Source of the DNA: an uncultured Clostridia bacterium | GTDB taxonomy: Bacteria; Bacillota; Clostridia; TANB77; CAG-508 | Reading direction: 5' to 3' | Length of the DNA: 64,000 nt | Assembly: GCA_947623725.1 (NCBI GenBank) | Contig: CANQHI010000002.1 | Span: 7,296 to 71,295 of the forward strand | In this document: piece after piece, positions 4,331-49,300 of the stretch | Layout: every line of letters begins with the position of its first letter | How positions within the stretch are numbered: position 1 is the stretch's first letter | Translations under genes and position numbers: made by a program | Notes under the pieces: generated by a model | The model's database searches: none | What the model saw: only the letters and a program-made list of their open reading frames with translations | Told to the model about the DNA's origin: nothing

Positions 4331-4369
4331 AATGATTATAAAAATTAAAACATATAGTGATATAGAAAG

Positions 4370-4997: not shown

Positions 4998-5915
4998 ATG
5001 AGTAAAACTTTAGGAGAAATAATAGCAGAAGGAAGAAAAAAGAAGGGGTTATCTCAAGAAAAATTTTCTGAGCAAATGAAATGTACAAGGCAAATGGTAT
5101 CGAGATGGGAACTAGATGATGCAAAACCTAGAACAGAAAATATTAAAAGAATATCTAAAGTTTTAGAAATACCTATTGATGAATTAATCGGAGACAAAGA
5201 TAAGAAAAAAACTAATATTTCTAACGATTCAAATCCAATAAAAGTTAAGAAATTTAATTATAGAAAAGTGTCTATTATAATAGGTATTATAATTGCATTA
5301 CTAATTGTATTATATGGAGGGTATTCGATATATAAGTATACATTATTGAATAATATTTATTCAAAAGTTGCTCAATATATGAATGTGGAAAATTATTATT
5401 TTAGAAGAGATTCATATAAAAATGATGAAATGAGAAATACAGTTGAAGTTTGGTATAAGAATGGATTGTACAAGGTTATAGAAACATCATATTTTGATAA
5501 CATAGAGAATTATTCTGTAAAATATTTTGATGTTATTAATAAATACAGATATACAGTAAATGAAACAGAAAAAACGTATAATCAGTCATATTTAGTGAAT
5601 ACAACTCAATATGAAAATGGAGCTTATATGTATTCTCTATTTCCGTTTTCGATAATTGGTAATGCAAAGGAAGATTTTGGCAGATTATCTAGACAAATAA
5701 ATCTTATTTTTAGTAAAATTGAAGATAATAAATTATTATTAAAGATAAATGATGAAAAGATATATTTTAACAAAGAGAATTATTTTCCTGTTATAGACAA
5801 TATAAAAAATAATAATAAAGATATTTCGGATGCTGATATGCAATATCGTATAGAATTAAATAGCGTGCAAGATGAAGATGTTGTAATACCTAACTATTAT
5901 AAAAAAGAAGAATAA
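4998..5915 (+). CDS. Membrane-anchored XRE-family HTH transcriptional regulator (N-terminal HTH, one TM, extracytoplasmic C-domain)
   Basis: N-terminal LGEIIAEGRKKKGLSQEKFSEQMKCTRQMVSRWE HTH_XRE signature. TM segment VSIIIGIIIALLIVLYGGYSIY. RBS AAGGAGAT. Confidence 0.7.
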   Translation: MSKTLGEIIAEGRKKKGLSQEKFSEQMKCTRQMVSRWELDDAKPRTENIKRISKVLEIPIDELIGDKDKKKTNISNDSNPIKVKKFNYRKVSIIIGIIIALLIVLYGGYSIYKYTLLNNIYSKVAQYMNVENYYFRRDSYKNDEMRNTVEVWYKNGLYKVIETSYFDNIENYSVKYFDVINKYRYTVNETEKTYNQSYLVNTTQYENGAYMYSLFPFSIIGNAKEDFGRLSRQINLIFSKIEDNKLLLKINDEKIYFNKENYFPVIDNIKNNNKDISDADMQYRIELNSVQDEDVVIPNYYKKEE

Positions 5916-5919
5916 ACAA

Positions 5920-5943
5920 GGGCTTATGATTTCTCATAAGCCC
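5920..5943. terminator. Bidirectional terminator between convergent genes
   Basis: 10-bp perfect stem GGGCTTATGA / TCATAAGCCC with loop TTTC. Confidence 0.6.
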
Positions 5944-5966
5944 ACAGTGTAAGTATTTCACTAGTA

Positions 5967-6437
5967 TCATTGATAAATAGAACAGGCTACTTTAAAAGAA
6001 TCTCTTGTGGAAGCATCAAATATAAAAGTATAATCTCCAGAATCTAAATAATAAGCTGGAGCTATTGGAGTAGTATCTCCAGTAGATAGGGATAATACAC
6101 CGAGGTAATAAAATGAACCATCAGGGAATTTAACAGTACAAGATGTTGTACCAGATGTACTACTAAAAGCAATGGCGGCTTTAAATCCACCATAAGATAA
6201 ATTTTTGCCAAGGTGCACAGTAACTTCTCCATAACCACCTGAAATGGTTCCGCCACTGAATCCAACTTTATCGTCTAGTGAAGTAGGACTTACTTCGCCA
6301 CCTTCTCCGGTAGCATTGATACTAACATTTTCGGTTACTGCAGGTTCAGCAGAAGGCTGCTCACTTGCAAACGCCGTCGTTGAAAATACCAACGAAAGAA
6401 TAAGACCGATTGTTACTAAAGTGTTGATTTTCTTCAT
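5967..6437 (-). CDS. Secreted G/S/T-rich protein of unknown function (signal peptide)
   Basis: Start at MKKINTLVTIGLILSLVFSTTAFA (GGAGGA RBS 8 nt upstream). Local GC is higher than the surroundings. Confidence 0.55.
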   Translation of the reverse strand: MKKINTLVTIGLILSLVFSTTAFASEQPSAEPAVTENVSINATGEGGEVSPTSLDDKVGFSGGTISGGYGEVTVHLGKNLSYGGFKAAIAFSSTSGTTSCTVKFPDGSFYYLGVLSLSTGDTTPIAPAYYLDSGDYTFIFDASTRDSFKVACSIYQ

Positions 6438-18543: not shown

Positions 18544-20580
18544 ATGAAAGATAGTTTTATAGTAATGATAAAAAAGCATATGGTAGCAATAATATTAACT
18601 ATTGTATTTTGGCTATTTGCAGAGATATTTGTAGTAGCCCCATTATCTACAACAATAGTTGATAGTAGTGCTACCGGTGTTTTTGATTTAAGCTACTTTT
18701 TTGAAAATTTTACATTAAATATTGTAAGAGTTGCAGGTGTTGGAAAAATATTTAAAGAAGGTTATATAGGAACCTTTATGTTATGGACAGCAATTTTTAC
18801 AGTATTTTTTGCTATATGCGTTGGAATAGGATTATTTAAAAGTAGAAAAAGAGGAAAATATGACAAAATAGAACATGGTTCAAGTGACTGGAGTTCTGGT
18901 GGAGAACAATATAGAGTACTTAGCAGAAATGCCGGAATAATACTTGCAGAAGAGAATTATTTACCTTTAGATAAATTAGGTAATACCAATGTACTAATAG
19001 TCGGTGGTTCAGGTTCTGGTAAATCATCTGCATATACTATTCCAAATGCTCATCAATGCTTGGGATCTTATGTATTTACAGATCCCAAAGGTGAGATATA
19101 TGATGCAACCGCAGGATACTTAAAATCACAAGGATATGAAATAAAATTATTAAATTTAGTAAATCCAAATAGTAGTGATAGCTACAATCCAATACAACAT
19201 GTTAAATCAGAATTAGATGTAGACGTTATAGCAAATACCATAGTAAAAGGACAAAAATCAGAAGCAGCAGGAGCACAAGATCCATTCTGGGACAATATGT
19301 CAGAGCTATTATTAAAAGCTTTAATATATTATTTAATAGCAGCAGTACCTCCAGAAGAACAAAATTTAGCAAGTTGTGCAGAACTAGTTAGAGCAGCAAA
19401 TACAAAGGGAAATACAAATCTTTTATCAGAATTATTTAATAAATTACCTTATGATCACCCTGCAAGAATGAATTATAAATCAGTTGAAATATCTTCAGAC
19501 AAGACATATAGCTCAATATTAAGTTCATTACAATCAAAATTAGGAAAATTTGATTCAAAGGAAATTGCAAATGTAACATCAACTAATACAATAAGTTTTG
19601 AAGATATTGCTACAAAGAAAACAGCTTTATATGTAGTATCATCAGATACACATACAGCTTACGACTTTTTACTAACAATATTCTTTTCACAGATGATACA
19701 ACAATTATATGATTTTGCAGATAAAAATGGTGGAAAATTGCCACAAAAAACATTTTTTATACTAGATGAGTTTTCTAATATTGGTCAAATTCCAGACTTT
19801 GATAAAAAAATATCAACAAGTAGAAGTAGAGGAATTTCATTTAGTGTTATATTACAAAACTTAGATCAGCTTAAAGCATTATATGAAAAATCTTATGAAA
19901 CAATAATAGGTAACTGTGATACGCATGTATTCTTAGGAAGTAACTCTTATGCAACAGTTGAGTATTTTTCAAAAGAATTAGGAGAAAAAACAATATCACA
20001 TTATAGTAAGTCAATAAATAGAGACAATTATAATGATAGAAAAGGTTATAGTGAATCTGATCAAATAATGGCAAGAGCACTTATGACACCAGATGAATTA
20101 AGAAGATTAGACAATAATAATTGTATAATTTTCGAAAAAGGTTTAAAGCCAATTATGGCCCAAAAATATTATTGGTTTAAAAAGCCTAGAATTACAAAGG
20201 ACTTAAATTCAATTAGAATAGATCATAATGACTTTGATGCAGGAGATAGAGGAGAGTGGAGAAAATTTGATCCATATAACCCATTTACAGGAAAAGCAGT
20301 AGAAGATGAAAAAGAACAATCATTTAAAGTAGAATCACTAGATGACTTATGGACTGATGAAGAACCAAAAGAACAAAATTCAAATGAGGCAAAACCAATA
20401 GAGCAAACAGTTCCAGAAATAAAAAATAATAGTGAAGAATTAGCAAATCAAATAAAAAATGAAATGGAAAATAATAATGCTTATCAAAGTTCAGTGGAAC
20501 AACCAATCCAAGAAGATGAACTAGATATTCAAAAAGAGCTAGAGGCTAAATTTGATGAGTTGTTTGGTCCAATGGAATAA
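18544..20580 (+). CDS. Type IV secretion coupling protein homolog (TraG/TraD/VirD4 family ATPase), orphan
   Basis: N-terminal TM helices. Walker A LIVGGSGSGKSS. Walker B-like FFILDEFSNIG. Acidic C-terminal tail. No relaxase or VirB4 neighbour in the window. Confidence 0.75.
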   Translation: MKDSFIVMIKKHMVAIILTIVFWLFAEIFVVAPLSTTIVDSSATGVFDLSYFFENFTLNIVRVAGVGKIFKEGYIGTFMLWTAIFTVFFAICVGIGLFKSRKRGKYDKIEHGSSDWSSGGEQYRVLSRNAGIILAEENYLPLDKLGNTNVLIVGGSGSGKSSAYTIPNAHQCLGSYVFTDPKGEIYDATAGYLKSQGYEIKLLNLVNPNSSDSYNPIQHVKSELDVDVIANTIVKGQKSEAAGAQDPFWDNMSELLLKALIYYLIAAVPPEEQNLASCAELVRAANTKGNTNLLSELFNKLPYDHPARMNYKSVEISSDKTYSSILSSLQSKLGKFDSKEIANVTSTNTISFEDIATKKTALYVVSSDTHTAYDFLLTIFFSQMIQQLYDFADKNGGKLPQKTFFILDEFSNIGQIPDFDKKISTSRSRGISFSVILQNLDQLKALYEKSYETIIGNCDTHVFLGSNSYATVEYFSKELGEKTISHYSKSINRDNYNDRKGYSESDQIMARALMTPDELRRLDNNNCIIFEKGLKPIMAQKYYWFKKPRITKDLNSIRIDHNDFDAGDRGEWRKFDPYNPFTGKAVEDEKEQSFKVESLDDLWTDEEPKEQNSNEAKPIEQTVPEIKNNSEELANQIKNEMENNNAYQSSVEQPIQEDELDIQKELEAKFDELFGPME

Positions 20581-20933: not shown

Positions 20934-21368
20934 TCAATTCAGTGCATTTTGTATTAATTTTTTTATAATCTCATCAAGTTCTTCTCTTGATTTATATTCA
21001 TATTTATTAATAGATTCATCTTGTCTAATTTTCTTAACATCTTCATCATATTCAACATTTTTGAATATAACTTGTATATATTTAACCTTACTTTTTTTAG
21101 CTATTTCATATTCTTCTAATGTATACTGTCCGATTCTTTTTCCTACTATCATTATAAATATATCAGAAGTAGGAATTTCACTATTATAGTCTGCTTGTTT
21201 TCTTTCAGTTGATACGGTATTATCAGCAAATTCACATTCAAATAAATTAATTCTAACTCCATCATCAATTAGCTTATCTTGCAATTTTCTAATAGTGTTT
21301 CCTATCTGATTTCTTTCATTTTTAAATTCATTAACAGATGATGCAAGGAAAATTTTTAATCTTTTCAT
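20934..21368 (-). CDS. Standalone DUF4062-like domain protein (144 aa)
   Basis: KIFLASSVNEFKNERNQIGNTIRKL ... FECEFAD ... SDIFIMIVGKRIGQYT matches the DUF4062 pattern (VFISS..DL.EER ... mE.F ... cDiyIgIlG.RYG). Its start overlaps the stop of the upstream TPR gene. Confidence 0.55.
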   Translation of the reverse strand: MKRLKIFLASSVNEFKNERNQIGNTIRKLQDKLIDDGVRINLFECEFADNTVSTERKQADYNSEIPTSDIFIMIVGKRIGQYTLEEYEIAKKSKVKYIQVIFKNVEYDEDVKKIRQDESINKYEYKSREELDEIIKKLIQNALN

Positions 21369-24300
21369 TATTCTTTTCCTTTCTTTTTATCATTTTTTTG
21401 CTGAGCTTTAAATTCTGCTTTAAAGTTTTTAGCCATTTTTGCATATTTAGTAGCATCATCAATTAAATCTAATTTTATGCATACTCTAGCTAAATTATAA
21501 TAAGTAAAGGCTAAATCTTGGGCATATTCATGGTTCTTTTCATAAGCTTTTTTTAACATATCAAGAGCTTTTAAATAATAAGATGAAGCATCATCATATT
21601 TTTTATTGTGTCTACATGATTCTCCCATTTCTATATAGTCATAAATTAAGGTAGTTTCATATTTTTCATAATTATCTTTTATTAAATTTTCTTCAAGTTC
21701 TATAGCCATAAAGTAATATGTTTCTGAATCATCATATTTTTTATTATCATAATAAAATTCAGCAACCTTATGATAAGCGTTAGCAAGTGAAGCAGTATAC
21801 TTATCAGTTTCCTTAAATAGTTCTCGCTCTGTACTCATAGATTTTAGATAAAAATATTCTGTATATTTTTTATCCTTTAATTTAGAAAATATTAAAGCAA
21901 TATTATAATATAAATTAGCTAAATTATGTCTATTTACTATTGTTTTCTGCATTGATGGTTTTTCACGAATTTCAAGTGATATTTTATAGTAATCTATTGC
22001 TTTTTCAATTTTATTAGTATTAATATAAACACTAACTAAGCAATCACATATATCAGCATAATCTGATTCATATAATTTTTTATTATCATTGTATAATTTA
22101 GAGCATAATTCAAAAGCACTTAAATAATAATTTTCTGCGTCTTTATACTGTTTTCTTTGGAAGTATGTGTTGGCTAATTGTTTATAAGTATTATATAAAT
22201 AAGTAGCATATTCAGAAAAATCATTATCTAGAAGTTTTTCTAAAACAGCTATTCTATCTTTATAATATGTTTCAACCTTTTCATAGTCTTGCTTTTTGTC
22301 ATACAAATTTATAAGGTCATTATATGTTTTTGCAAGATTTAGTCCATTTTTATTAAAATTGTATTCTGCTAACTTTTTATATAATTCAAATGCTTTTAAA
22401 TAGTACTCCTCAGCTTTATCAATTTGATTCATATTATAGAAATAAAGTGCTCCTAGTCTATTAAAAACAAATGCAATATTATCAGTATAATCATTATTTT
22501 TTGCCTTTTTATCTAAATCTTGTCTTATTTTTAATGATTTTAAATAATAATTTTCAGCTTCTTTATATTTTTTAGTTACTTTATAAAGTTCACCTAAAGT
22601 ACAGTAAGAAGAACTTAAGTCGAATATTGAGTTAGAATTATTTTCATCAGAATATTTTTCTCTAATTTGCATACTTTTTAAAAGATATTTTTCAGCATCT
22701 TCATACTTCTTCATATTATTCAAATATAGAAGACCTAAATCATAGTAACATGAGGCAAGAGTTGGATTAAAATATTTTTCATCTCTAAGATGAATTTTTT
22801 CTATTAGTTCAATTCCATCTAAATAGCTTTTTTCTGCTTCATCATATTTTTTCAAAAGTATATAAATATCGCCTAATAATTGATAATTCCTTGCTAAATC
22901 TGGTTCATATAAACCTTTCATATTAGGAATTAAATTCTTGTAAATACTTATATTATTTACTAAATATTTTTCTGCTTCGTCATAATTTTTTATTTTCTTA
23001 TATAAATTACTGATTTTGTCATTTAATAGAGCTAAAGAATATTCAGAGTCTGATTTTTGTAAGTCCAAAGTATCTTTTAATATATCAATAGCCTTTTTAT
23101 AATATTCTTGATCATTTCCTAACAAATCGCCAAGTGATTCATAATCACCTGCAAGATAAAAATTATATTTTCTTGCATTTTTTTCTGCTAATTTTTTGTC
23201 AACTTCAATTTCCATTGAGCAATATTCTTTTGCTTTTTCTAAATTATTCATTGTATTGTATAGGTTAAAAAAGCAGGCATATAAATTTGAAAAGTAAGTT
23301 TCAATATTTTTATTATCAAATTCTTCCACATAGTAATCAAGTTGTTCCTGAGCTTTTTTTAAATATTTTTCTGAAGTCTCATAATCTTTTAATTTTATAT
23401 AAAATGCTCCAAAACTTTTGTAAATTTGTATAAGACTTATTTGATTGCTTTCTGTTTTATTATTAGCAAGTTTTTCATATAATTTTAATGCCTTGTTATA
23501 ATAAAATTGAGTTTTGTCATATTTATATATTTTTAAATAAAAACGACCAAGGGTTTGATAAGAACTTGCTAATCCGACTCATATAAGCTTGAGAATTACT
23601 TTCATATAATTCTTCCATTAGTTTCGTATCTTTTAAAAGATAATCTTCAGCTATATCATATTTTGATATGTTAAGGGCATATTTTCCAAGCTGATGATAA
23701 GAAGCAGATAAAAGTTCTTTTTTATCTTCATCTTTAGGATATTTTTTTACTAAGTCAATTCTTATATCTGTTGATTTTCTATAATATTTTAATGCATTAT
23801 GAAAATCATTATATTTTTCAAGTAAAAGTGCATAGTTATTATATGAATTAGATAATACAACTCTATAATAATCGTCACTGTCTTCAGTTAATATTTTTTC
23901 ATCTATTTCTATTGCTTTCAAGAAACAGTCTTTAGCTAGTTCAAATTTTGCATCTTCAAAGTATAAATATGCTAGTCCTAGATTATTATAAGCAATAGAA
24001 AGATTTTTTTGATACAATTTCGGATTAATTTCAACTAATTTTTTGTCAATTTCAATTAATTCTAGATATATTTTTTCAGCTTCTTCATATTTACCAATAT
24101 TATAATAAATTATTCCTAAGTGGTTATAAATACTTGATAAATTATCATAATATATTCCTTCGTCAAATTCTTTTTCATAATACTCTTTAGTGGAACTTAA
24201 ATTTAAATATTCTTTATATTTGTTAGCAAATTTTATTGCTTTATCATATTGGTTTTGGTTATTCAAATATAAACTATATTTATATAAACTGCGTCTATTT

Positions 24301-25310
24301 AGATTTCCTTGTTCATCAAGCTTTACAGCTTCCTCAAAAGCTTCTTCAATTTCTTTATATCTATTGTTATTATTTATATCCAATTTTAATATATCAATTC
24401 TTTGCATAAGCTCGTTTACAATTGTTTGCATTTCTTCTTTTTGCTTCTCTTGAATTTTCAATAATTTATCACCATCTGATTTTAAATCTTCAAAAGATAA
24501 AGCATTTTTTGCTTCTTCTAAATCACCATCATCTAAGCATTTTTTTGCATATATTTGTCTTTTAGAAAGCTTGCCGTCCATTGATGAAGAAATAAAGCTA
24601 CTTTCTAGTTCAATAATATTATTCTCAATTTGGTATATATTATCTTTTATTTTTGATCTCTTATCATTTATATCAGAAAATTTTTCAAAAGCTTTTTCAT
24701 CATCAGGATTTTTTCTAATAATATCTTTATATTCCCAATATTCTTGGTCTAGTTTATTATACTGTTCCTTTAAGTTATTTAAGTCTTTGTTGTTGAATAT
24801 AAATGGAATATTATCTAAAGTCATTATTTCGTCTTTATTAATACATAACTTGTTATCTATAACCTCAATTTTACCAGCTTCTAAGCCTAAAGATTTTAAT
24901 TGCAAAATTATATTTAACTTGATTGTATCAATATTTTCATACTGATTATAATAATGACCTAATTCTTCATCTAAATGCTTCATAAAATTAACAACTGACT
25001 CATCTTGATTTTCGCTTTTCTTGATATATGTTGTAATTTTAGGATTACGATTATTCTTGAAAAACTCATAAGCAGTATTAAATTCTTGAACTATCTTTTC
25101 ATCTGCAGTATGTGAAAATAGTATAAAAAACAATTCACTTTTCTTTATATCATCAGTTAAAACTTCAGAATCATCATCTGTGATTAGTCTAAAATAAATA
25201 TCATAATTCTCATATTTGTCATTTAAATCGCGTATAAAATTTCCAATTTCATCTTTTTCGTTTTGTAGTTCTTTTTCATCAACAGCTAAGAAAATATTAA
25301 TTTTTTTCAT
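21368..25310 (-). pseudogene. DUF4062-like domain + coiled-coil + long TPR-repeat protein (~1,300 aa), split into two ORFs (23523-25310 and 21368-23329) by a frameshift near 23579-23590
   Basis: The N-terminus MKKINIFLAVDEKELQNEKDEIGNFIRDL is paralogous to the 144-aa neighbour. The TPR reading frame continues without a stop from 23578 down through the GTG at 23329 (VGLASSYQTLGRFYLKIYKYDKTQFYYNKALKLYEKL...), so the 653-aa ORF is the downstream part of the same gene. Confidence 0.6.
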
Positions 25311-25406
25311 AACTTCATATCCTCATATAATATGTTAATTTTAATAAACATATTCTTATTTTATATTTAGGTTTTTTAAAGGCTACCTATAAACCTTATA
25401 ATTAAC

Positions 25407-26351
25407 TTATTTCAAGTGTTCTGGAATTCCCATTACATGCATAAAATTATTAAAACTTTCCTCATCTAATTCTTTTTTTACATCATCAACAGCTAAGTTA
25501 AATTTATTTAAAAAATTATTATAATCGCTTTTTTTCAAAAGTCTTTTTAAAATAATTATAATAGATAAAATGTCATTTTCACCTGATTCGTAGTGTTCTC
25601 CATTTTTAACAATTCCTAAATCATCATGAAAAAAAGACTTTTTATGAATTGGATAAGAAATACTTAAATTCAAATTAAATAGCATATTGCTATGTGCAGC
25701 GATGTTTCTAACGACATTTAGCATTTTCAAAAAGGTAAGTAAATCTTTATAATTAATTTGACAAAGATTAGATACTTCTTTTTTGTCCTCGATTTTCATT
25801 AAACTATAGAATTTTATAATGTTTCCAAAAGTAATTAAAGTAGTAAACATCCATAGAGGAATTGTATTATATAATTCTTTACATTCCTTTATATCCTTGT
25901 AATTATCAATATTTCTATTTAAGTTATCATCTAAATTTTTCATGAATTCTGTATAAAGTTGTTTAGTTTTATAATTAACACTAAAATTTTCTTCATTTAG
26001 ATAATTGTAAACACCATATTTCTTAGAAAAAGTATTTGCTATGTATGATTTTATATTAGTTTCAATTATAGAAATATAATTAAACATAATATTTCTAAGT
26101 TCTCTGTCAAATTTGTAAACAGCATAAATTTCTTCAAAATAAGTGTCCGTAGTACATGTCTCAATTCCATTTTTTTTAGAATTTTTTATATCAATAAATA
26201 TATCTTTATAACCAGTAATTAAGTTATAATAGTTTTCTCTTAAAAGGACTTCTTTAGCTTCTTTTTCATTTTTTATTATAATGTTACTAGACTTTATTAT
26301 CTCTATTTGTTCATTTATATCTTTGTATTCTAAATTCATATAAAATTTCAT
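25407..26351 (-). CDS. Abi_2 family abortive-infection protein (AbiD/AbiF-like)
   Basis: N-terminal EQIEIIKSSNIIIKNEKEAKEVLLRENYYNLITGYKDIF matches the Abi_2 consensus (L...NYYRL..Y...F). C-terminal VRNIAAHSNMLFN matches RNxxAH. Confidence 0.7.
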   Translation of the reverse strand: MKFYMNLEYKDINEQIEIIKSSNIIIKNEKEAKEVLLRENYYNLITGYKDIFIDIKNSKKNGIETCTTDTYFEEIYAVYKFDRELRNIMFNYISIIETNIKSYIANTFSKKYGVYNYLNEENFSVNYKTKQLYTEFMKNLDDNLNRNIDNYKDIKECKELYNTIPLWMFTTLITFGNIIKFYSLMKIEDKKEVSNLCQINYKDLLTFLKMLNVVRNIAAHSNMLFNLNLSISYPIHKKSFFHDDLGIVKNGEHYESGENDILSIIIILKRLLKKSDYNNFLNKFNLAVDDVKKELDEESFNNFMHVMGIPEHLK

Positions 26352-26464
26352 TCCTTTTTTCGTACATAATTATAAAAGTATTATTCTTTATTTTTCTATT
26401 TTGTATCCTAGTTTTATCAGTACTTTTAAAGATTCTTGTAAAGTATTTCTATATTAATATGGGC

Positions 26465-28270
26465 TTATACATTTTTATCTTCCTTATAAATATATGGTAT
26501 ATTTTTAATAATTTTTATATCTGAGTCTTTATAATTTTTATTAAGCTTATGTTCAATTTCATCTAGTTTTTCAAAATCAGCTATAGCAGGGTGTAATTTT
26601 GCTAAAATATGTTTTGCATCATTTATTTTTTCACGATATTTCTCAACATCAGCAATTGATGCACTTTGATATCCATCACTTCTCATATATGCTATCCATC
26701 TATTGTGCTCATTTTTAACTAATTCATTAAAAATTTTATCGTCTTGAAGTTTTTTCTCGAAGTTATTTAAATCAGTTCCAATATCACCAGTATATTCATC
26801 TTTTAATACTGAATAAATTTTGTATTTTATATGAGTTGCAGTTGCTCTTGAAGATTTTACATTATATTCTGTTTCATAATATTTTTCTAAATTAACATCA
26901 TCAGCATTGTATATTAAATGTACTCTTTGAGACATGTGCTCTATTTTTGAATCAATAATTGGATATTTGTAGTAAATATCATTAATGCTTCCAAAAGCAT
27001 TTAAGTTGTATTGTGTTTTTTCGTCAGCCTTTAAATAATTTATTTGCATGCTTTTTTCTTCATCTTTTATCCAAATATTAATAATTGGCTTATTATTGTA
27101 ATTTTCTTTATCTTGTAACAAGAAATATTTTCTTAAATAAATAGCTTCTTTTATATTTATTTCATCATTTTGAAGAGTTACAACTACATAATTAATATTT
27201 TTTAATTTATTTAATTCATCTAATGCTTTTTGAGAATTAATATCTGCTTCAATAAAGTTATAGTCGTAGTTTGCAATTAATTCAGGACATTCTTTTGTAA
27301 GTAATTCTTTTATGTGATTTGCTCTAATATCAATAATGTTTATTTTTAGCTTATATCCAATAATCTGACCACACCATGTAATTATCTTTAAAAATTCTCT
27401 TCCAACTTTGCCACAACCTACTATTAAAACAGAAATCTCATTGTTTATAGCATTTAGATAAATAGGCTTATCTTGCAATAACTGTATAATAGTTCTTTCA
27501 ACTTCATTTACAATTTCTAACTGAATATTGCCTTTATCAGTAGAATCTAAGATAATTCTAGAAACTTCATCATTTAAGATACTATAAATTTTTATCTTTT
27601 TATTTAATGATTTATTTTTTTCAATTAATCGTAAAGTTAAAGTTAAATTTTCATTTTCTATTTCATTTACTAAATAAATAGTAACAGTATTGCTTTTTAT
27701 CTTTTTTAAATTTATATTTTCTATTAATGAATAAAATTTAGTAATATTAAGTCCTTTTAAGTCATAATTTTTTGCATCATCTTTTTCACAATTTGCAAAA
27801 ATAATAGTTTTATCTTTATTATATAAGTTTTTAGCTATAGTTACAGATTTTTCATTTAATTCTGAAAAAATTAATATATCTTTTTTTCTAGTAAAATACA
27901 ATTTGAATTTGGTTGTAAAATCACCAATAAGAGTTAATAAAAAAGATACTGTAAGTAATGGCATTAATAATGTTAATAGATAAATTATACCAATATAAAT
28001 TGTATCAAATATATTTATGATTTGAAAATTATTAAGTATTCCTAAATTTTCATTTAAAATGATAGTTTGTGCAGAATATAAAATAGAATTTACTAGTTTT
28101 CCCATAAAATCAGGCTGTGTACTTAGTGGGAAAATTAATATAGCAAGTGAAACTGTCATTCCAAGTATTGATATAGGTATCCATTTTTTTGTATCATTTA
28201 TATTTTTTTTCGCTTTTATAACTGTAAAAATTAATATAATTATAGATAAAAGTAAAAATATATTATTCAT
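26465..28270 (-). CDS. Membrane protein: N-terminal 4-TM domain plus tandem Rossmann/RCK (TrkA-N)-like domains (CASTOR/POLLUX-like channel architecture)
   Basis: Four hydrophobic helices in the first ~120 aa. The GxGxxG-type loop VLIVGCGKVGREF begins a Rossmann domain. 601 aa. Confidence 0.45.
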   Translation of the reverse strand: MNNIFLLLSIIILIFTVIKAKKNINDTKKWIPISILGMTVSLAILIFPLSTQPDFMGKLVNSILYSAQTIILNENLGILNNFQIINIFDTIYIGIIYLLTLLMPLLTVSFLLTLIGDFTTKFKLYFTRKKDILIFSELNEKSVTIAKNLYNKDKTIIFANCEKDDAKNYDLKGLNITKFYSLIENINLKKIKSNTVTIYLVNEIENENLTLTLRLIEKNKSLNKKIKIYSILNDEVSRIILDSTDKGNIQLEIVNEVERTIIQLLQDKPIYLNAINNEISVLIVGCGKVGREFLKIITWCGQIIGYKLKINIIDIRANHIKELLTKECPELIANYDYNFIEADINSQKALDELNKLKNINYVVVTLQNDEINIKEAIYLRKYFLLQDKENYNNKPIINIWIKDEEKSMQINYLKADEKTQYNLNAFGSINDIYYKYPIIDSKIEHMSQRVHLIYNADDVNLEKYYETEYNVKSSRATATHIKYKIYSVLKDEYTGDIGTDLNNFEKKLQDDKIFNELVKNEHNRWIAYMRSDGYQSASIADVEKYREKINDAKHILAKLHPAIADFEKLDEIEHKLNKNYKDSDIKIIKNIPYIYKEDKNV

Positions 28271-28509: not shown

Positions 28510-29547
28510 ATGAAATTTGTACATTTAGCAGATATACATTTTGACACTCCATTTAAGACAATATCAGATAGAGCAGATTTAGGAAAGATAAGAAGATTAG
28601 AACAAAGATCTGCGTTTAAAAAAGTAATAGAATTTATTAAAGAAAATAAAATAGAATATTTATTTATTAGTGGAGATTTTTTTGAGCAAGATTATGTTAG
28701 AAAATCTACAATTATATATATAAATAATTTATTTAATGAAATAAATAATACAAAAATATATATTGCACCAGGAAATCATGATCCATATATGGCAAATTCA
28801 TATTATAAGACTTTTGATTGGGCTGATAATGTAAAGATATTCACAGAAAAAGCAGAAAAAGTGGAAAATCCTGATGCAAATATCTATGGTTATGGGTTTA
28901 ATAATTATGAAATGAATGACAATCAATTAGAGGATATAGAAATTGATGATAAAAATAAAATAAATATATTAATTACTCATGGAACAGTTATATCAGGAAA
29001 TGAAATAAGTGGTATATATAATCCAATTAGTAAAAATAAATTAGAAGAAAAAGGATTTGACTATGTAGCATTAGGTCATATACATAAAAGAGATAAATTT
29101 TATCCAGGTTCGCTAATTTCAATGGGGTTTGATGAGATAGGAGAACATGGTTTTATATATGGAGAAATAGTAAATAACAAATTGAGTACTGAATTTATAA
29201 AAGCAGATGAAAGAGAATTTATAGAAATTGATGTTGATGTTTCAGATATATATTCAGAAGAAGATTTAATTGAAAAGTTAAATTTAATTGATACAGGTAA
29301 TAATTTATATGAAATTAATTTAATTGGGTATAGAAATTTTATTATTAATATTGATTTAAAATTAATACAAAAAAATATAATTAAAATAAAAGATTATACA
29401 GAAGTAAAAATAGAAATAAAAGAAAATAATAATACATTAAAAGGAATTAGTTTAAAAAAATTAAATGAAAAATTAAAAAATAATGAAATTAATAAAAAAG
29501 AATATGATGAAATTTTAGAAATTATTTTAAAAATATTTAATAATTGA
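28510..29547 (+). CDS. Mre11/SbcD-family metallophosphoesterase nuclease (YhaO/SbcF-like)
   Basis: MKFVHLADIHFD, GDFF, GNHD and GHIH phosphoesterase motifs. Confidence 0.75.
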   Translation: MKFVHLADIHFDTPFKTISDRADLGKIRRLEQRSAFKKVIEFIKENKIEYLFISGDFFEQDYVRKSTIIYINNLFNEINNTKIYIAPGNHDPYMANSYYKTFDWADNVKIFTEKAEKVENPDANIYGYGFNNYEMNDNQLEDIEIDDKNKINILITHGTVISGNEISGIYNPISKNKLEEKGFDYVALGHIHKRDKFYPGSLISMGFDEIGEHGFIYGEIVNNKLSTEFIKADEREFIEIDVDVSDIYSEEDLIEKLNLIDTGNNLYEINLIGYRNFIINIDLKLIQKNIIKIKDYTEVKIEIKENNNTLKGISLKKLNEKLKNNEINKKEYDEILEIILKIFNN

Positions 29548-30534
29548 ATGATTAAATAAAAAGCTATAATATATAAAATAAAAAATTAAAATAAATATTA
29601 AATTAAAAAACAAAAAAAGAAAAAAATAAAATAAAAAATATAATATATAAAATATAAAAATTAAAATAAAATTAAAAATAAAAATTAAAATTATATTAAA
29701 AATAAAAATATAAAATATAAGAAATCAAAAAATAAGATAAAAAATAAATATAATTTATAAATAAAAAATATAAAAAGTAAAAAAGAAAATGAAAAAATAA
29801 ATTAATAAAAAGAAAATATATAAAAAATAAAAAGTATAAAAATAAAATGATAAAAATTAACTGAAAAAAATATTTTATTAAGAAGAAAATATACAAAAAT
29901 ATCTAAATTTAATTTTAAATTAATAATTTCTTGATAAAAAATGTCAAAAATAATAATGTATCTGTTATGAAAGAAATTGACAAAAAATCGTCATTTTAAG
30001 ATGAAAAAAATAAAGAGTAAGATTAAATTATATAATTTAAGAATAACAAACGTATAATCAAAAAGACAAATTAAAAGAAAAGCTAAGATAAAAAAAGCTA
30101 AACTTGAAAAAAACTAGGGATAAAAATAAAAAATGACATATAATTTAAAAAATATAAGCTATAAAATTGAAAAGAAAAATCTATAAAAAACACAACCTAA
30201 TAGACAAAAAATATTAAAAATTTTTTCAAAAAAAGAGAAACTTGTCAAAAAAACAAACAAAACAAGCCTGAAGAGCTAAAAATTCAAAAAGAAATATTTG
30301 GTAATAGAGCAAGCGAAAAAAATTGATGATAAAAAACAAAAATAAAATTATCTATATTATTTTAATAATTAAATAAGAAATAAATTATTAACACAAAAAG
30401 TTTATAAAAGATAAAAATAATTTTGAAAAAAACAATACAAAATAAAAAAATTTTTATCAATAAATTATAAAATTTTTATATAAAAAATTAATAAATGTAT
30501 TATAAAATTTTAACAAAAATAAAAATTAAAAATT
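29548..30534 (+). repeat. ~1-kb non-coding A-rich low-complexity tract (plus strand almost T-depleted) separating the SbcD-like and SbcC-like genes
   Basis: Runs of AAAAATAAAA/ATATAAAA-type words. Stops in all frames. No regular CRISPR-like periodicity. Confidence 0.6.
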
Positions 30535-30546
30535 GGAGGATAAAAT

Positions 30547-32346
30547 TTGAAAATAAAAAATTTAAAAATTAATGGTTATGGAAAATTAAAAAATAAAAAT
30601 ATAAATTTTGAAAAAATAAATATTATTTATGGAAAAAATGAATCAGGTAAATCTACAATATTAAATTTTATTATAAATATTTTATATAATATTTCAAAAA
30701 ATAAAAATGGAAAATCGTTATCTGACTATGATAAATATTTACCTTGGAATGAAAACGAATTTTCTGGAAAAATTTCTTATATATTAGATAATAATAAAAA
30801 ATATCAAGTTTTTAGAAATTTTAATAAAAAAGATACAGAAGTATATGATGAAAATGGGATAAATATTTCAAATGAATATAATATAGATAAAAAATTAGGA
30901 AATTTATATTTTTCAGACCAAGTTAAAGTTGATAAGGATACATTATTATCAACGGTGGTTGCAGCACAGAATGAAACAAGAATAGATGCTAATATGCAAA
31001 ATATTTTAATTCAAAAAGTGGCTAACTTAGCTGAAAGTGGAGATGAAGAAGTATCATATAAAAAAGCAGTTAATATATTAGGAAAAATATTACTTAATGA
31101 GGTTGGTACAAATAAAAGTCAAGACAGACCAATTAATATTACTAAAGAAAATATATTTAATTATGAAAAAGAATTAGAAGATATTAAAAACATAAGAAAT
31201 ATAAAAAGTGAAATAGAAGAAAAAAATAAAAAATTAAATAAAATGTTAATTAGTCATGAAAAAAATAAAGAAATAATAGAAAAAATAATCAATATTTTAA
31301 ATAATAAAAAATTAAAAAGTGAAAAAATAAAAATAAAAGAAAATATTTATAATGAAACTAAAAATAAAATAGAAAAAATAAGAAATAATAAAAAAGATCA
31401 TAAAAATAATAAAAAAAATTATATTATTTTAATAATATTGATAATTATAAATATTTTAAATTTCATTTTTATAAAAAATAAAATAATTAATTTAATGTTA
31501 TTTGCATTAATTCCGATTTTTATTTTAATATTATTTATAAAAATGATTAATAATAAAAAATATTTTTTAAAAAATGTTGATTTGCCAGTAAAAACTTTAG
31601 AAGGTAATAATAATGAATTAAAAATAGAAATAAATAAATTAAAAGAAGAATTAAATAATGAATTTTTTGATGAAAAAGAAGAATTAATTAGAATATATGG
31701 AAAAGAAATTATTAATTTACTTGAAGATGAAGATATTGAAAAAAGACTACATGAGACTAATAAAGAGATTGAAAGAATAGAGCTTGAATTACATAAACAA
31801 AAATTGGACATGAGTAATATAGAACCTAAACTTGAAAAATTAGCAGAATTGGAGGAAAAGCTAGAATTAGAAGAGTCAAATTTAGAAAAATTAGAAAATA
31901 GAGCTAACATAATTAATTTAACTAAAGATATAATAGAAGAATCTTATATTGAAATGAAAAATAATGTTACTCCAAAATTTAATATAAACTTATCTAAAAA
32001 TATAGAAAAATTATCAAAAGGAAAGTATAAAAATATTATTATAAATGATGATATTTTAGTTGAGCTAGAAAATGGACAACATATTTCTATAGAAAGGTTA
32101 AGTACTGGAACGATAGAGCAAATATATTTAGCATTAAGACTTTCTGTAATTGATGAAATTTCTACGGAGAAATTACCTATATTTTTAGATGAAACTTTTG
32201 CTTTTTATGATGATGAAAGATTAGAAGAGGCATTAAAGTTCTTATTAGATATAGAAAATCAAGTTATTATATTTACTTGTACGAATAGAGAAAAAAATAT
32301 ATTAGAAAAATTAAACGCTAACTTTAATTATATTGATATAACTTGA
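30547..32346 (+). CDS. SbcC/Rad50-like ABC ATPase with central transmembrane hairpin (YhaN/SbcE-like), TTG start
   Basis: N-terminal Walker A GKNESGKST. C-terminal signature LSTGTIEQIYLALRL and Walker B IFLDETFAFYDD. Short coiled-coils flank two hydrophobic 18-20 aa segments (YIILIILIIINILNFIFI / LMLFALIPIFILILFI). GGAGGA RBS 6 nt before TTG. Confidence 0.7.
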   Translation: MKIKNLKINGYGKLKNKNINFEKINIIYGKNESGKSTILNFIINILYNISKNKNGKSLSDYDKYLPWNENEFSGKISYILDNNKKYQVFRNFNKKDTEVYDENGINISNEYNIDKKLGNLYFSDQVKVDKDTLLSTVVAAQNETRIDANMQNILIQKVANLAESGDEEVSYKKAVNILGKILLNEVGTNKSQDRPINITKENIFNYEKELEDIKNIRNIKSEIEEKNKKLNKMLISHEKNKEIIEKIINILNNKKLKSEKIKIKENIYNETKNKIEKIRNNKKDHKNNKKNYIILIILIIINILNFIFIKNKIINLMLFALIPIFILILFIKMINNKKYFLKNVDLPVKTLEGNNNELKIEINKLKEELNNEFFDEKEELIRIYGKEIINLLEDEDIEKRLHETNKEIERIELELHKQKLDMSNIEPKLEKLAELEEKLELEESNLEKLENRANIINLTKDIIEESYIEMKNNVTPKFNINLSKNIEKLSKGKYKNIIINDDILVELENGQHISIERLSTGTIEQIYLALRLSVIDEISTEKLPIFLDETFAFYDDERLEEALKFLLDIENQVIIFTCTNREKNILEKLNANFNYIDIT

Positions 32347-34554: not shown

Positions 34555-36832
34555 ATGCAAAATTTATTAGAAGAACTTAATCCAAAACAAAGAGAGGCAG
34601 TAGAAACTACAGAAGGACCATGCCTTGTTATAGCCGGTGCAGGAAGTGGAAAAACAAAGGTATTAACATACAAAATTGCATATTTAATGCAAGAAAAAAA
34701 TATAAAACCATGGAATATACTTGCAATTACATTTACAAATAAAGCAGCTGACGAAATGAGAGATAGAGCAGAAGCTTTAATTGGAGAAAATATAAACGAT
34801 TTATGGCTTGGAACATTTCACTCAATATGTGTTAGAATTCTTAGAAAATTCATTGATAGACTTGGATTTGATACATCTTTTGCAATCTTTGACACATCAG
34901 ACCAAAAGACTTTAATAAAGAATTGTTTAAAAGAATTAAACGTTGATACAAAATTATTTACAGAAAAGTCAGTTTTAAATGAAATAAGTAATGCTAAAAA
35001 TGAAATGATGGAACCAAAAGCGTACTTGGAGGAATATAGCAATGACTACAGGAAGGGCATTATAGCAAAGGTTTATTCATTGTATCAACAAAGATTAAAG
35101 CAGAATAATGCGATTGATTTTGATGATATTATCAATTTTACAATAAAAATTTTAATGGAAAATCCAGATGTATTAGATTATTATTCTAGTAAATTTAGAT
35201 ATGTTTTAGTTGATGAATATCAGGATACAAATAAGGCACAGTTTACATTAGTAACATTACTTGCATCAAAGTATGGAAATGTTACGGTTGTTGGTGATAA
35301 TGACCAGGGAATTTACAGTTTCCGTCGGAGCAGATATTTCAAATATTTTAAACTTTGAAAAAGACTATCCTGGTACAAAAATAATAAAATTAGAGCAAAA
35401 TTATCGTTGCACAGGAAACATATTAAAAACAGCAAATGCAGTAATTAAGCACAATGAAAATAAATATGATAAAAAACTTTGGACAGAAAATGAAGAAGGA
35501 ACATTACCATATGTTTTTTGTGGAGAAGATGAATATTCTGAATCTAACTTTATAATAGAACAAATTAATAGATTGAGAAGAGAAGAATATTATAAATATT
35601 CTGATTTTGCAATACTTTATAGAATGAACTCACAATCAAGAGCATTAGAAGATAAGCTTAGAATTGAAAATATTCCATACAAAATAATAGGTGGATTAAA
35701 ATTCTATGAAAGAAAAGAAATAAAGGATACTATTGCATATTTAAGGTTACTAGCTAATCAATCTGATAACTTATCATTAGAAAGAATTATAAATGAACCA
35801 AAAAGAGGAGTAGGAAAAACAAGTATTGATAATGTTAGAGAAATTGCAGAAAACAATGGAATATCAATGTATGAAGTTATAAAAAGAGCAGACGAATTTG
35901 TACCTAGAATTTATAATAATACAAGAGATTTTATTAATGCCATTGAAGAATTAAAAGATAAAGAATGTTCGATAGCAGATTTAATTACAGAAGTATTAAG
36001 TAAAACAGGATATACAAAAAGCCTAGAAAATGAAAATACTGTTGAAGCAGAAAGTAGACTTGAAAATATAGAAGAATTTTTAACAGTTGCTAATGAGTTT
36101 GAAAAAGAGGCAGTAGATAAATCTTTAACCGAATTTTTAAATGGAATATCATTAGCGAGTGATACTGATAATCTATCGGACACAGAAGATGTAGTCACTT
36201 TGATGACCTTACATAGTGCTAAAGGATTAGAGTATCCAGTTATATTTTTAGTAGGATTAGAAGAAGGAATTTTCCCAGGGCATCAATCAATGGATAATCC
36301 AGCAGACATTGAGGAAGAGAGAAGACTTTTTTATGTAGGAATTACTAGAGCAAAACAAAATTTGTTTTTAACTTTTGCTAGAAGAAGGACAATATTTGGT
36401 TCTACTAGTTATAATCCACCATCAAGATTCTTAAAAGAAATTCCAAAAGATATACTTGATGGATATGAAGAAGCGATGGAGAAACAGGAAGAGCCAGATG
36501 AGTTTGAAGATACAAATTATTCATGGAGCTATGGAAGAGGATATGATGTAGCACAAAGTACTGGAATAAATACAGGAAGCTTTAAAAGTAGTGAAGTTAA
36601 GTTTGGAAGATCAGCAGAGGGATTTTTAGCATCACTTCAGGCAAAAAAATCTACACAAGTAGATTTAAGTAAGTATAAAGTTGGACAAAAAGTATTTCAT
36701 AAAAAATTTGGAGAAGGAGTTATTTCAAAGTTAGAAGAAGAAGGAGAAGATATTAAAGTTGATATAGATTTCGAAAAAGTGGGACATAAGAGATTGATGG
36801 CAAAATTTGCGGGACTTGAAATATTGCAATAA
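34555..36832 (+). CDS. pcrA: ATP-dependent DNA helicase PcrA/UvrD, reading frame interrupted by a 1-nt insertion at ~35324-35328 (two ORFs: 34555-35358 and 35261-36832)
   Basis: Walker A AGAGSGKTKVL. Motif III reads GDNDQGIYSFRRS... in one frame and continues GADISNIL in the next (expected GIYSFRGADI). All UvrD motifs are present across both pieces. Confidence 0.8.
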
Positions 36833-46358: not shown

Positions 46359-49300
46359 ATGAAAAGAAGCCAAAAGATTTTTAATAAACTTACATCATCA
46401 ATTATTTCAATAGTTTTAATTGGTTCAAATTTTGCACCGGTATTATCTTATGCTGCTAACCAAATAAATCAAAATGAATCAAGTGATGAAATAATGTTTG
46501 ACGTTTCAGTCAATGATGAACATTCTTATACAGCTACTTTAGAAGAAAAATTAATGCTTAAATTTGATCTAGCAGTACAAGATGGTGGGTATATTAAAGA
46601 TGGAACAATTTCTATAAGTGATGAAAATTACAAAATTGGTGAAATCGAAAGCAATGTATATGAAGAAGATAATAATAATATAAATCAGACTAATTCGGAA
46701 ACAATAGAAATTGGACAAGTAAATAGTGATAATCCTCTTAATTTTGAATTGCCAATTGAATTTGAAAAACAAGATTTAATGAACTTAGAATATTTTAATA
46801 AAAATAGTAAAGTAGAATTAGTGGCTAATTACATTAATAATGATGGAGAAGAAGAAAAAATCTCTAAAGAAGTTAACCTAAATATAAAATGGGATGAAGA
46901 AGCAGAAGGATATATTAAACAAGAATTAAAAAGATATTTAAAATATGACAACAAAACATTAGTTAGTTTCTTAGTAACAGATGGAATGCAAGATAATAAA
47001 TTGCCACAGTTAAGTAAGATTACTCAAGTACTAGTTCCAAAAATAGGAGAATATGAACCAAGCAAAATAATTGTTACAGGTGAATATTCAGATTATATTT
47101 ATGAAAATCAAGTACTTGCAATAAAGAGTGCTGAAGAATTTACATGGAATTCTGGTAATGAATATTTAGTTACATATATATATGATAATCAAATGGATGA
47201 AACAACATTATCAACAATTGCATTAAGTCAAATAAAAACTGTAAATGATAAAACAATAGAAACAAAAACAGATGTAATGTCATATGAAGTAAAAGATGAG
47301 ATAGGAAATTTATTAGAAACTAATATTATAGGAACAGACGAATTAAGTAAAGGATATTTATATACAAACTTAAATAGAGAAAATAAATTGGATACATCAT
47401 TTGAGCAAACCTATCAAATTAATATAGGATTAGTTGATTTTCTAGATGAAATTAAAGTATCTGAAAATGAAAATAATACAGTAACTAGAAAAATAACAAT
47501 TGATAAAGAAGAATTAATAAAAATTTTAGGTGAAGATGGAAGTATAAAAGTTTTAGACAAAGATGGTATTGAACTTGGAATTTTAAATAAAGATAATTTA
47601 GAATTAAATGTTGATAAAAATAGTTTACAGTATATTACTAGTAAGCCTGTTAAAGAAGGAAATATAAATGTTAATTTAACTAAAGTAATAGATCCAAATA
47701 TGGAATATACAAAAGAATCACTTGCAGAATTAAATGAAATAGAAAACAGCATAGATATAATAGGTAATTATCAAGGAAATGAAATTTCAAATAATCATTT
47801 AGAAAAGAAATTTAACTTAGTTGAACCATCTTCAAATGCAACAATAAGTATTAATCAAAGTGATTTATCTACAGTTATAAAAAATGAAGATATAGTTATA
47901 ACTGCTACACTAGAAAGAAATGATATTTCAGATGCATTATATACAGATCCAGAATTATTAATCACTTTACCAGATCAAATAACTAGTATAGATTTAAAAG
48001 ATGCAAAACTTTTATATGAAGATGAATTAAAACCAGCAGATTTTAAAGCAGAAGGAAATAAAATATATTTAAGATTAGAAGGAACTCAAACGGAATATAG
48101 TTCAATTCCTACAGCAAATGGTTCAGTTATAAAGATAGTTGCAGATTTAGGGTTGGATAATCTAGCAGTAAATGCTAATGAGAAAATTACGTTAGAATAT
48201 ACGAATCAAGCAAGAAATGAAATAAAAGCAGTAGAAACACCTATTCAAATAGTTGCTCCTACAGGTTTTGTTACTGCAAATTCTGCTATGCAAGCAAAAA
48301 CTTCAACAGCAATAAATAGCGATGAAGTATTTCAAATTGCCGCAAATGATGTTGAAAAGCAGATTACTTTAAAAGGAACAGTTGTTAGTAACTTAGAAAA
48401 TAATGGAACAGGAGTATTAATACTTGGAAGAATACCAGCTCAAGAAACAAAGTCAGTCGATGGATTAAATAATGATTTAGGATCAACATATATAACAAAT
48501 ATAAAATCACCAATTTCAATAGAAGGAATTGATGCAGATATTTATTATTCAGAAAATGGCATGGCAAGTTATGATTTATCAAATGTAGACAATGGCTGGA
48601 CACAAGAATGTATCTCAAGTGCAAAATCTTATCTAATAGTAGTAAAGTCAGAAGTTGCTCCTGCACAAAGGATAGATTTTACTTATGATATAAATGTGCC
48701 AAGCAATATTGATTATGAAAATAGTGCTGTTTCAATGTTTGCAGTATATTATGACAATAATGAGAATTATAAAAATATAATTGTATCTAAAAAGATAAGT
48801 ATTGATACAGAAAATATTCCTATCATAAAAACTACAATTACAGCTAATGATTTTTATTCAGGAGATGTAATTAATTATGGAGATAATATAAGTTTAGGAA
48901 GCTATGTAAGATATATAATTAATGTAGCTAATGAAGGAAAGCAAGCAGCTGAAAATGTAAGAGTAAAAATAGCAATTCCAGAAGAATGTGGAGTATTTTA
49001 TGAAACTTATGATGAGGAGTTAGATTATTATGATTCATATATAGATACCAGTGCAGAAACAATAAGAGAAATAGAAAAAATTGAACCAGGCGAAACAAAG
49101 CAAGTAGAAATAATATTGTATATACCTACAACAATAAATGTAGGAAGTACAATAGTAATAAGACCAGAAGTTACAGCAGATAATATGGCAGATATGAGTA
49201 CAGCAATATATGAAAACACTTTATCAGAAGGAAAAATAAGCCTAAAAATGTCCACTACTTTATTAAAGCAAGATAAAGAAATAGGAGATGAAATATCATA

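Follow-up and report, generated by a model that had tools for sequence, protein, structure and literature searches.

This study concerns two adjacent genes in a 64-kb stretch of DNA (64,000 nt, hereafter the window) from contig CANQHI010000002.1 of an uncultured Clostridia bacterium. On the plus strand, the window carries a gene for a 345-aa protein (28510-29547), followed by a 999-nt intergenic spacer without an open reading frame (ORF) (29548-30546) and by a gene for a 599-aa protein that starts with TTG (30547-32346). Both ORFs are intact and lie exactly where the initial annotation had placed them, and its description of the two products as an SbcD/Mre11-like nuclease and an SbcC/Rad50-like ATPase holds. 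A minus-strand ORF at 31419-31910 was discarded as an antisense artifact of the ATPase gene. The window is part of the core chromosome of a spore-forming Clostridia bacterium with ~25% GC, whose nearest genomes are uncultured Clostridia assembled from rabbit and mouse gut metagenomes. Its gene content includes dnaX, ypeB, a Mur ligase gene, ddl, dnaJ, prfA, pcrA, mreB, and the gene for PBP2, and the GC content drops to 16-17% across the nuclease/ATPase locus. No canonical sbcCD is present within the 64 kb of the window.

The 599-aa protein (30547-32346, plus strand) is a Rad50-like ATPase of the YhaN/SbcE family, in a short-arm form, as indicated by Pfam, profile, Foldseek, and hhalign comparisons. 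Its TTG start codon is preceded, at a distance of 8 nt, by a GGAGG ribosome-binding site read from the sequence (30534-30538, plus strand), the alignment to the family consensus begins at residue 1 of the N terminus MKIKNLKINGYGKL, and the ATPase of L006, the locus most closely related to that of the window, is likewise TTG-initiated, after AGGAG. In Pfam, the protein matches AAA_27 (PF13514), the YhaN-type P-loop domain, with an E-value of 5e-11 and a score of 43 bits (cut-off 22), as well as AAA_23. An alignment of 68 homologues reveals that the motifs of a split ATP-binding cassette (ABC) head are invariant or nearly so. The Walker A motif, or P-loop (residues 29-37, GKNESGKST; 30631-30657, plus strand), displays the N-E pair typical of the family and conforms to the pattern G29-x-N31-E32-x-G34-K35-S/T-T37, which is common to Listeria YhaN and of which N31, E32, G34, and K35 are invariant in 68/68 sequences. 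Column counts give the same (near-)invariance for the Q-loop Q141, the signature L518-S-x-G-T522, the Walker B residues D548-E549, and D-loop D555, the C-terminal head motifs (LSTGT 518-522, Walker B LPIFLDE 543-549, D555, and FTC-x-x-RE 576-582) being encoded by 32098-32292 on the plus strand. The canonical split head seen by the initial annotation, with Walker A at the N terminus and signature and Walker B at the C terminus, is thus borne out.

Structural comparisons give a concordant picture. When a profile of the 68-sequence alignment was compared with the PDB, the best matches were to Rad50 (5e-18), and a Foldseek search with the AlphaFold2 (AF2) model of the ATPase, which has a predicted local distance difference test score (pLDDT) of 87, returned Rad50 (7zr1) first, then SMC heads, more Rad50 entries, and Lamassu LmuB. 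The NCBIfam Rad50 equivalogs match with 17-22 bits, their cut-offs being 700-1000. For the 599-aa protein, computation shows a split ABC head of the Rad50 type in which the ATP-binding motifs are intact. One position departs from the ABC norm throughout the YhaN family: that of the H-loop histidine, occupied by a near-invariant cysteine (Cys578 here) within FTC-x-x-RE (32272-32292). In a hidden Markov model (HMM) alignment to Pyrococcus furiosus Rad50, the ...ftC... of the family stands opposite the ...VSH... of Rad50, and the motif is also found in the long forms (FTCK/Q/R), the Listeria version being FTCH.

Between the two halves of the head, the AF2 model exhibits two arms that meet in a hydrophobic apex. 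The ascending coiled-coil arm (residues 195-284; 31129-31398, plus strand), in which K, I, N, and E abound, is a continuous helix with a pLDDT of 84-94. The descending arm (residues 351-489; 31597-32013, plus strand) consists of a helix at 351-384, a break, and a second helix at 397-489. While the ~90-aa arms previously proposed correspond well to the two longest helices (195-284 and 397-489), the C-terminal side has in addition the helix at 351-384 and the break, and the arms are therefore roughly 90-135 residues long. In between, the model shows a helix at 289-308, a three-residue turn, and a helix from 312 onward. This region is the apical hydrophobic hairpin (31411-31548, plus strand), defined by hydropathy, insertion energy, and the AF2 model, in which two putative transmembrane (TM) segments, TM1 (residues ~291-308) and TM2 (~312-334), are joined by a KNK turn and have Lys-rich flanks on both sides.

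The hydrophobic character of this apex is pronounced. Averaged over 19 residues, the Kyte-Doolittle hydropathy of the segments 291-310 and 312-334 reaches 2.6-3.0, and in a Hessa-type membrane-insertion scan the predicted insertion free energy (dG) is below zero solely at these two segments, with -1.5 and -3.6 kcal/mol, respectively. None of 12 soluble proteins encoded in the equally AT-rich window (0/12) has a segment with dG<0, whereas such segments are found in its membrane proteins, namely YpeB, the TraG-like protein, the TrkA_N protein, ZIP, and PBP2. The hairpin is therefore not an artifact of an Ile/Phe/Leu-rich composition. No CxxC zinc hook is present in the ATPase, of which C578 is the single cysteine, and none of the 68 homologues has a central CxxC. 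Computation thus shows two antiparallel arms of ~90-135 residues and an apex of two ~20-residue hydrophobic helices, with a turn of ~3-8 residues and Lys/Arg flanks. An apex of this kind, predicted to insert in the membrane and devoid of a zinc hook, is what the initial annotation had described.

As for how widespread the hairpin is, the family provides a clear answer. A central hydrophobic region occurs in all of the 120 close homologues (594-669 aa). Of 150 family representatives considered after clustering at 50%, 129 are at least 480 aa long, and in every one of these 129 (482-1099 aa) there is a central hydrophobic block at a relative position of ~0.5. A strict two-helix criterion, requiring two adjacent insertion-competent 17-mers, is passed by 113/129 representatives, and most of the other 16 nearly pass. 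The turn has a mean length of ~6 aa across the representatives (with individual gaps of 0-20), and the 15-residue flanks of the hairpin contain 529 and 516 K/R against 199 and 198 D/E, an excess that amounts to a positive-inside pattern on both sides. Hairpin position, turn length, and K/R-rich flanks are conserved family-wide; in GC-richer homologues the hairpin is made of Ala/Leu/Val/Gly in place of Ile/Phe. The 907-aa YhaN of Listeria has an equivalent central hydrophobic segment, MVSLGIFAVAFVLMIVFQAIWSVALVFVSALIVGYAFI. The hairpin had been viewed as a special replacement in this protein, to be contrasted with an ordinary YhaN without TM segments, but this premise is false, since the Listeria protein and nearly all of the other representatives have it too. 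The predicted membrane hairpin is a trait of the whole YhaN/SbcE family and not of this locus.

Nor is the ATPase unusually short, as had been thought. Hundreds of close homologues measure 594-602 aa, and Lachnospiraceae members 495-550 aa. A size of ~600 aa is standard in this low-GC gut Clostridia clade, the proteins of Clostridiaceae and Bacilli being 840-1100 aa long. Because length varies continuously in the family, from 495 to 1099 aa, with arms of variable length and a constant hairpin, we treat it as a subfamily trait rather than a defining one. The shortest members found, at 495 aa, are encoded by the Lachnospiraceae loci L017, L018, L020, and L026. In their hairpin, a "RVHP-x-E ... 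RPWNY" motif is conserved, in contrast to the Ile/Phe-rich composition seen in the window clade, which suggests a sequence-specific packing beyond that of a greasy anchor.

The 345-aa partner (28510-29547, plus strand) is a YhaO/SbcF-like nuclease with an Mre11/SbcD fold, an assignment based on its Pfam match, fold, and motifs. It matches Pfam Metallophos with an E-value of 2e-16, and its matches to the curated SbcD and Mre11 models are under the cut-off (for example, 45 bits for TIGR00619 sbcd, where the cut-off is 77.65). All five Mre11 phosphoesterase motifs, formed by D8/H10, G55-D56, G88-N89-H90-D91, H157, and G189-H190-x-H192, are invariant in 28 homologues. The AF2 model (pLDDT 82) shows a phosphoesterase core, a β-rich capping domain, and, at the C terminus, a helix-loop-helix formed by residues 310-344, and when it was compared with the PDB using Foldseek, the top 50 matches were Mre11/SbcD without exception (50/50). 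Computation thus shows for this protein an Mre11/SbcD fold whose di-metal nuclease site is intact, and the helix-loop-helix is probably the element that binds the ATPase. In a pairwise BLASTP comparison, the nuclease is 27% identical to Listeria YhaO (98.6 bits, E 2e-27), while S. aureus SbcD, found by phmmer in the PDB, scores 34 bits, below Listeria YhaO.

The resemblance of the pair to YhaO/YhaN, which the initial annotation had noted, was tested directly against the Listeria yhaO-yhaN-yhaM locus and was confirmed. This reference locus (L027) comes from an L. monocytogenes chromosome found in plasmid records, where it is mislabelled as a plasmid, and has the order yhaO (411 aa), yhaN (907 aa, with a 4-nt overlap), yhaM, and prsA. 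The heads of the window ATPase and Listeria YhaN share 31% and 29% identity in BLASTP, and hhalign aligns the window protein with the C-terminal head of Listeria YhaN with a probability of 98.9. Since head alignments, motifs, and the hairpin are all common with Listeria YhaN, the window pair falls into the YhaO/YhaN (SbcF/SbcE) family, and computation on the sequences shows it to be a family without a zinc hook.

The genomic context is that of a stable core locus. The gene order ddl-(HD)-dnaJ-p172-TraG/VirD4-like-nuclease-ATPase-prfA-ZIP-pcrA is found in nine relatives whose ATPases are 40-81% identical, and its upstream part, from dnaJ to the TraG-like gene, is retained in L028, where the ATPase is 37% identical and the downstream genes differ. 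Immediately before the ATPase gene, 24/26 loci have an SbcD-like gene, as does the Listeria locus, the two other loci of the 26 ending too early upstream to show one. As judged by this synteny, the pair is a vertically inherited, core-genome housekeeping operon in this clade and not an island gene. Both genes are under purifying selection: when the window is compared with L006 or L004, the ratio of nonsynonymous to synonymous divergence (dN/dS) is 0.15-0.26 in the nuclease gene and 0.23-0.31 in the ATPase gene. As a separate observation, the nuclease genes of the window (28510-29547) and of L006 (3025-4062) have a synonymous divergence (dS) of 0.17, under half of that of either the adjacent ATPase gene (0.47) or prfA (0.40), which hints at a stronger codon or nucleotide constraint or at a recent exchange of the gene.

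The spacer that separates the two genes (29548-30546), previously regarded as a possible functional partner of the pair, consists of 62% A on the sense strand. It contains no ORF of at least 40 aa on the plus strand and no terminator-like site, the latter meaning that co-transcription of the pair remains likely. It has no match in Rfam, and was therefore rejected as a known RNA. The 5' third is made up of degenerate, A-rich tandem repeats (a minisatellite), with TRF arrays at 29554-29870, and the orthologous spacer of L006 (984 nt; 4063-5046) contains a 131-133-nt unit present in 2.6-2.9 copies with 87-92% identity. In a global alignment of the two spacers, 754/999 window positions are identical (75%), a divergence approximately as predicted from the synonymous divergence of the flanking genes. 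In most of the window clade the same gap measures 33-140 nt, and in Listeria, Clostridiaceae, and Lachnospiraceae it lies between -43 and +60 nt, while L004 has 603 nt (5398-6000). Apart from the orthologous L006 spacer, the search for further copies among the sequences compared gave nothing but low-complexity matches, and we also discarded the idea of a repeated mobile element. A promoter scan detected 45 sites, with 44.8 expected, AT-rich DNA making such a scan uninformative, and a 24-nt inverted repeat at 29917/30451 is within chance for an A/T-only sequence. Short islands are kept in the window, L006, and L004 near 30040-30270, for example AAAAACACA-CCT-A-AGACAAAAAATA and TTGTCAAAAAAACAAA. 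We detected neither an Rfam family nor a terminator, an ORF, or a further copy, and nothing that marks the spacer as a functional partner; its simplest reading, from sequence comparison, is a slippage-driven, lineage-specific expansion of intergenic DNA that seems to be drifting neutrally.

We consider it likely that the two genes specify a YhaO/YhaN (SbcF/SbcE) pair with short arms, belonging to a second, non-canonical kind of Mre11-Rad50 machine in Firmicutes, and that this pair would serve as a membrane-anchored DNA-end clamp and nuclease. The hairpin would span the cytoplasmic membrane with both of its ends inside, and the ATPase heads with the bound nuclease would hang ~13-18 nm beneath it. 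By analogy with the mechanism of Rad50/SbcCD, ATP would engage two heads in a DNA-binding clamp that gates the nuclease, the C-terminal helices of which would bind the base of the arms. The hairpins of two protomers may associate in the bilayer, replacing the zinc hook as the dimerizing element, and the complex would capture and process DNA ends beside the membrane. Such membrane-side processing would fit the roles of Bacillus subtilis SbcE/SbcF in break repair and transformation and their ComK-dependent gathering at the pole: sbcE mutants show sensitivity to double-strand breaks and poor transformation, SbcE interacts with SbcF, and both gather at the ComK-dependent polar DNA-uptake site of competent cells (PMC2811018). 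Within the family, such a complex and such roles are known from B. subtilis only. The same study described SbcE as having a unique hydrophobic central domain between heptad arms and no CxxC, reported that this domain is fully insoluble in E. coli when isolated, and, in 2009, reported SbcE from every Gram-positive genome included in its analysis (PMC2811018). Furthermore, a Staphylococcus surfaceome pipeline labels YhaN "Membrane" (PMC7137321), and two-hybrid data pair SbcE with YabT and SpoIIE, both of which are membrane proteins (PMC4205851). In the experimental literature that we searched, SbcE is nowhere called a membrane protein, its apex is nowhere studied, and SbcEF otherwise figures only in lists of "SMC-like" repair factors.

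Several observations pull in the other direction. AF2 confidence is lowest at the hairpin junctions (pLDDT 51 at 281-290 and 62-67 at 331-350), an AF2 monomer carries no membrane information, the insertion energies are those of a Hessa-type scale, and in the window protein TM1 contains two Asn and the turn is KNK. SbcE-YFP forms foci on nucleoids that move from pole to pole within a minute, which the authors did not read as membrane localization (PMC2811018). The cysteine in place of the H-loop histidine means that ATP turnover may differ from that of Rad50, and the 1-kb gap could uncouple expression of the nuclease and ATPase genes. Finally, identity to Listeria YhaN is low, and the function of the window pair is extrapolated from a homologue whose heads are 29-31% identical.

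Some of these observations would also be accounted for if the hairpin were soluble, that is, a buried dimerization or oligomerization hinge forming a four-helix bundle at the apex and replacing the zinc hook there. SMC-family proteins always need an apical dimerization element, and the moderate AF2 confidence at the apex would suit such a hinge, as would the fact that those who described the family named a "unique central domain" and saw mobile, nucleoid-associated foci (PMC2811018). We nevertheless regard a soluble apex as unlikely, since the two ~20-residue segments are near-purely aliphatic/aromatic with no amphipathic pattern, and their negative predicted insertion energies are on a par with, or more favorable than, those of the known membrane proteins of the window. 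Positive-inside flanks on both sides and a very short turn recur in more than 100 diverse homologues, the isolated SbcE central domain is wholly insoluble in E. coli (PMC2811018), and an automated localization pipeline assigns YhaN to the membrane (PMC7137321).

A different proposal, already raised by the initial annotation, concerns function: the pair might be a defense system, in which a membrane-tethered Rad50/Mre11-like sentinel attacks the free ends of incoming phage or plasmid DNA. The predicted location beneath the membrane would suit the interception of injected linear DNA, Rad50/SMC-like ATPases and nucleases do act in defense, and LmuB is among the structural matches. The ATPase also has weak PADLOC matches to PbeC, DndD, JetC, and LmuB, the nuclease has weak matches to PDC-S10 in PADLOC and to an anti-phage phosphoesterase in NCBIfam, and genes for AbiD and for TPR proteins are found shortly upstream in the window, AbiD being upstream in L006 as well. 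However, these PADLOC/NCBIfam matches are all borderline, with E-values from 1e-7 to 1e-2, and extend over nothing but generic portions of the ABC or phosphoesterase domains: the best, PbeC (1.3e-7), is restricted to the C-terminal ABC part, JetC (6e-5) spans 28 residues, LmuB reaches 7.6e-3, and PADLOC finds no partner genes of Lamassu, Wadjet, Pbe/Dnd, or Gabija at the locus. The AbiD block is a lineage-specific insertion on the opposite strand that is absent in L001-L005 and L007-L009. Moreover, the housekeeping synteny is kept down to 40% identity, and its upstream part to 37% (L028), rather than lying in variable islands, SbcE was reported from all Gram-positive genomes analyzed in one study (PMC2811018), and 72,556 plasmid records yielded just two weak partial matches, in a 285-kb Monoglobus replicon and in the mislabelled Listeria chromosome. 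A defense role is, in our estimation, improbable. Decay of the operon in this lineage, with the 1-kb spacer and the TTG start marking a pair that is losing function, is very improbable even though the gap is 999 nt instead of ~0-140 nt as in most relatives, GC falls to 16-17% across the locus, and the neighboring pcrA is frameshifted, because both ORFs are full length and intact with every catalytic motif present, dN/dS is 0.15-0.31 against L006 and L004, loci that also have large spacers, and a strong ribosome-binding site precedes the TTG, a start codon shared with the L006 ATPase and there too preceded by AGGAG.

The membrane-anchored clamp thus remains our preferred reading, and one neighbor deserves mention beside it. 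A coupling protein of the TraG/VirD4 type, which matches Pfam T4SS-DNA_transf (8e-82) and has two hydrophobic segments near its N terminus, is encoded at 18544-20580 in the window, at 2616-4715 in L001, and at 2427-3791 in L028. Its gene, surrounded by housekeeping genes and not by a conjugative element, lies directly upstream of the pair in L001-L005, L007-L009, and L028, where the ATPases are 37-63% identical. It is conceivable, although doubtful, that in this Clostridia clade the YhaN/SbcE clamp embedded by its apex and this chromosomal, DNA-translocating TraG/VirD4-type ATPase form a membrane module that processes DNA crossing or contacting the membrane. Such a module might act in DNA uptake, in export, or in the surveillance of entering DNA and, if real, would represent a function so far undescribed among Mre11-Rad50 relatives. 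The window itself has a 7.5-kb minus-strand block between the TraG-like gene and the nuclease gene. This block (21368-28270), which is inserted relative to L001-L005 and L007-L009 and over which the GC skew inverts, comprises four genes, whose products are two large TPR proteins (653 and 595 aa), an abortive-infection protein of the AbiD/Abi_2 type (PADLOC 1e-53), and a 601-aa TrkA_N membrane protein, and is probably a small defense islet. AbiD and TrkA_N genes are also found on the minus strand upstream of the nuclease gene in L006, before the locus sequence ends.

Two further features of the window lie outside the pair. The pcrA gene (34555-36832) is split by a 1-nt insertion near 35305-35325, in helicase motif III (GDNDQGIYSFR|GADISN). 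The pcrA of L006 (9133-11491) has the same extra base in the same place, with a different neighboring nucleotide, and that of L001 is intact (769 aa). The split could represent a shared pseudogene, a systematic sequencing artifact, or +1 frameshifting programmed at a rare CGG codon. Two very large ORFs, at 46359-51035 (1558 aa) and 52981-57210 (1409 aa), contain DUF11/SdrD_B and CarboxypepD_reg-type repeats and probably encode cell-surface proteins unrelated to the nuclease/ATPase pair.

The locus is thus an ordinary, conserved member of a known, if little-studied, family, and its main interest lies in the under-appreciated hairpin that it shares with that entire family. A predicted TM hairpin at the position of the zinc hook of Rad50, in hundreds of sequences, is a point not taken up in the literature that we searched. 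If the hairpin holds, Firmicutes own a membrane-fixed DNA-end clamp, which could explain the presence of SbcE/SbcF at the competence pole and would raise the question of which DNA is handled at the membrane. The compact forms of 495-600 aa would be much easier targets for cryo-electron microscopy and biochemistry than the 963-aa Bacillus protein.

Among known systems, the ATPases of the defense systems Lamassu (LmuB), Wadjet (JetC), PbeC/DndD, and PARIS (AriA) share with the window ATPase an ABC head, a coiled-coil insertion, and a nuclease partner, but are only structural and weak sequence matches to it. Unlike them, the window pair sits in a core-genome context, with no significant family-level match, and we know of no apical membrane hairpin in LmuB, JetC, PbeC/DndD, or AriA. 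The canonical SbcCD/Mre11-Rad50 complexes have the same two folds, with nuclease motifs I-V and a capping domain on one side and Q-loop, signature, and D-loop on the other. In contrast to these complexes, the window ATPase has a hydrophobic hairpin for the CxxC hook, a Cys for the H-loop His, and far shorter arms, and the NCBIfam SbcD and Rad50 scores of the pair are far below the cut-offs. The closest relatives are SbcF/SbcE (YhaO/YhaN) of B. subtilis and Listeria, although the window pair lacks three features of the Bacilli archetype, namely arms of ~300 aa, a total length of ~900-960 aa, and yhaM downstream. The window arms are about one-third as long as those of the Bacilli YhaN (599 vs. 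907-963 aa in total), the nuclease is ~65 aa shorter than in Listeria (345 vs. 411 aa), the two genes are separated by 999 nt instead of overlapping by 4 nt, and prfA rather than yhaM lies downstream. Walker B reads D-E in the window ATPase and D-D in Listeria YhaN, and the residue that follows the H-loop Cys is T/S in the window clade and H in Listeria. Nevertheless, the window pair and SbcF/SbcE have in common the order of the genes, nuclease then ATPase, a nuclease partner of the Mre11 fold, the head motifs GxNExGKST, LSxxT, and FTC, the absence of a zinc hook and, at the midpoint of the ATPase, the central hydrophobic two-helix domain.

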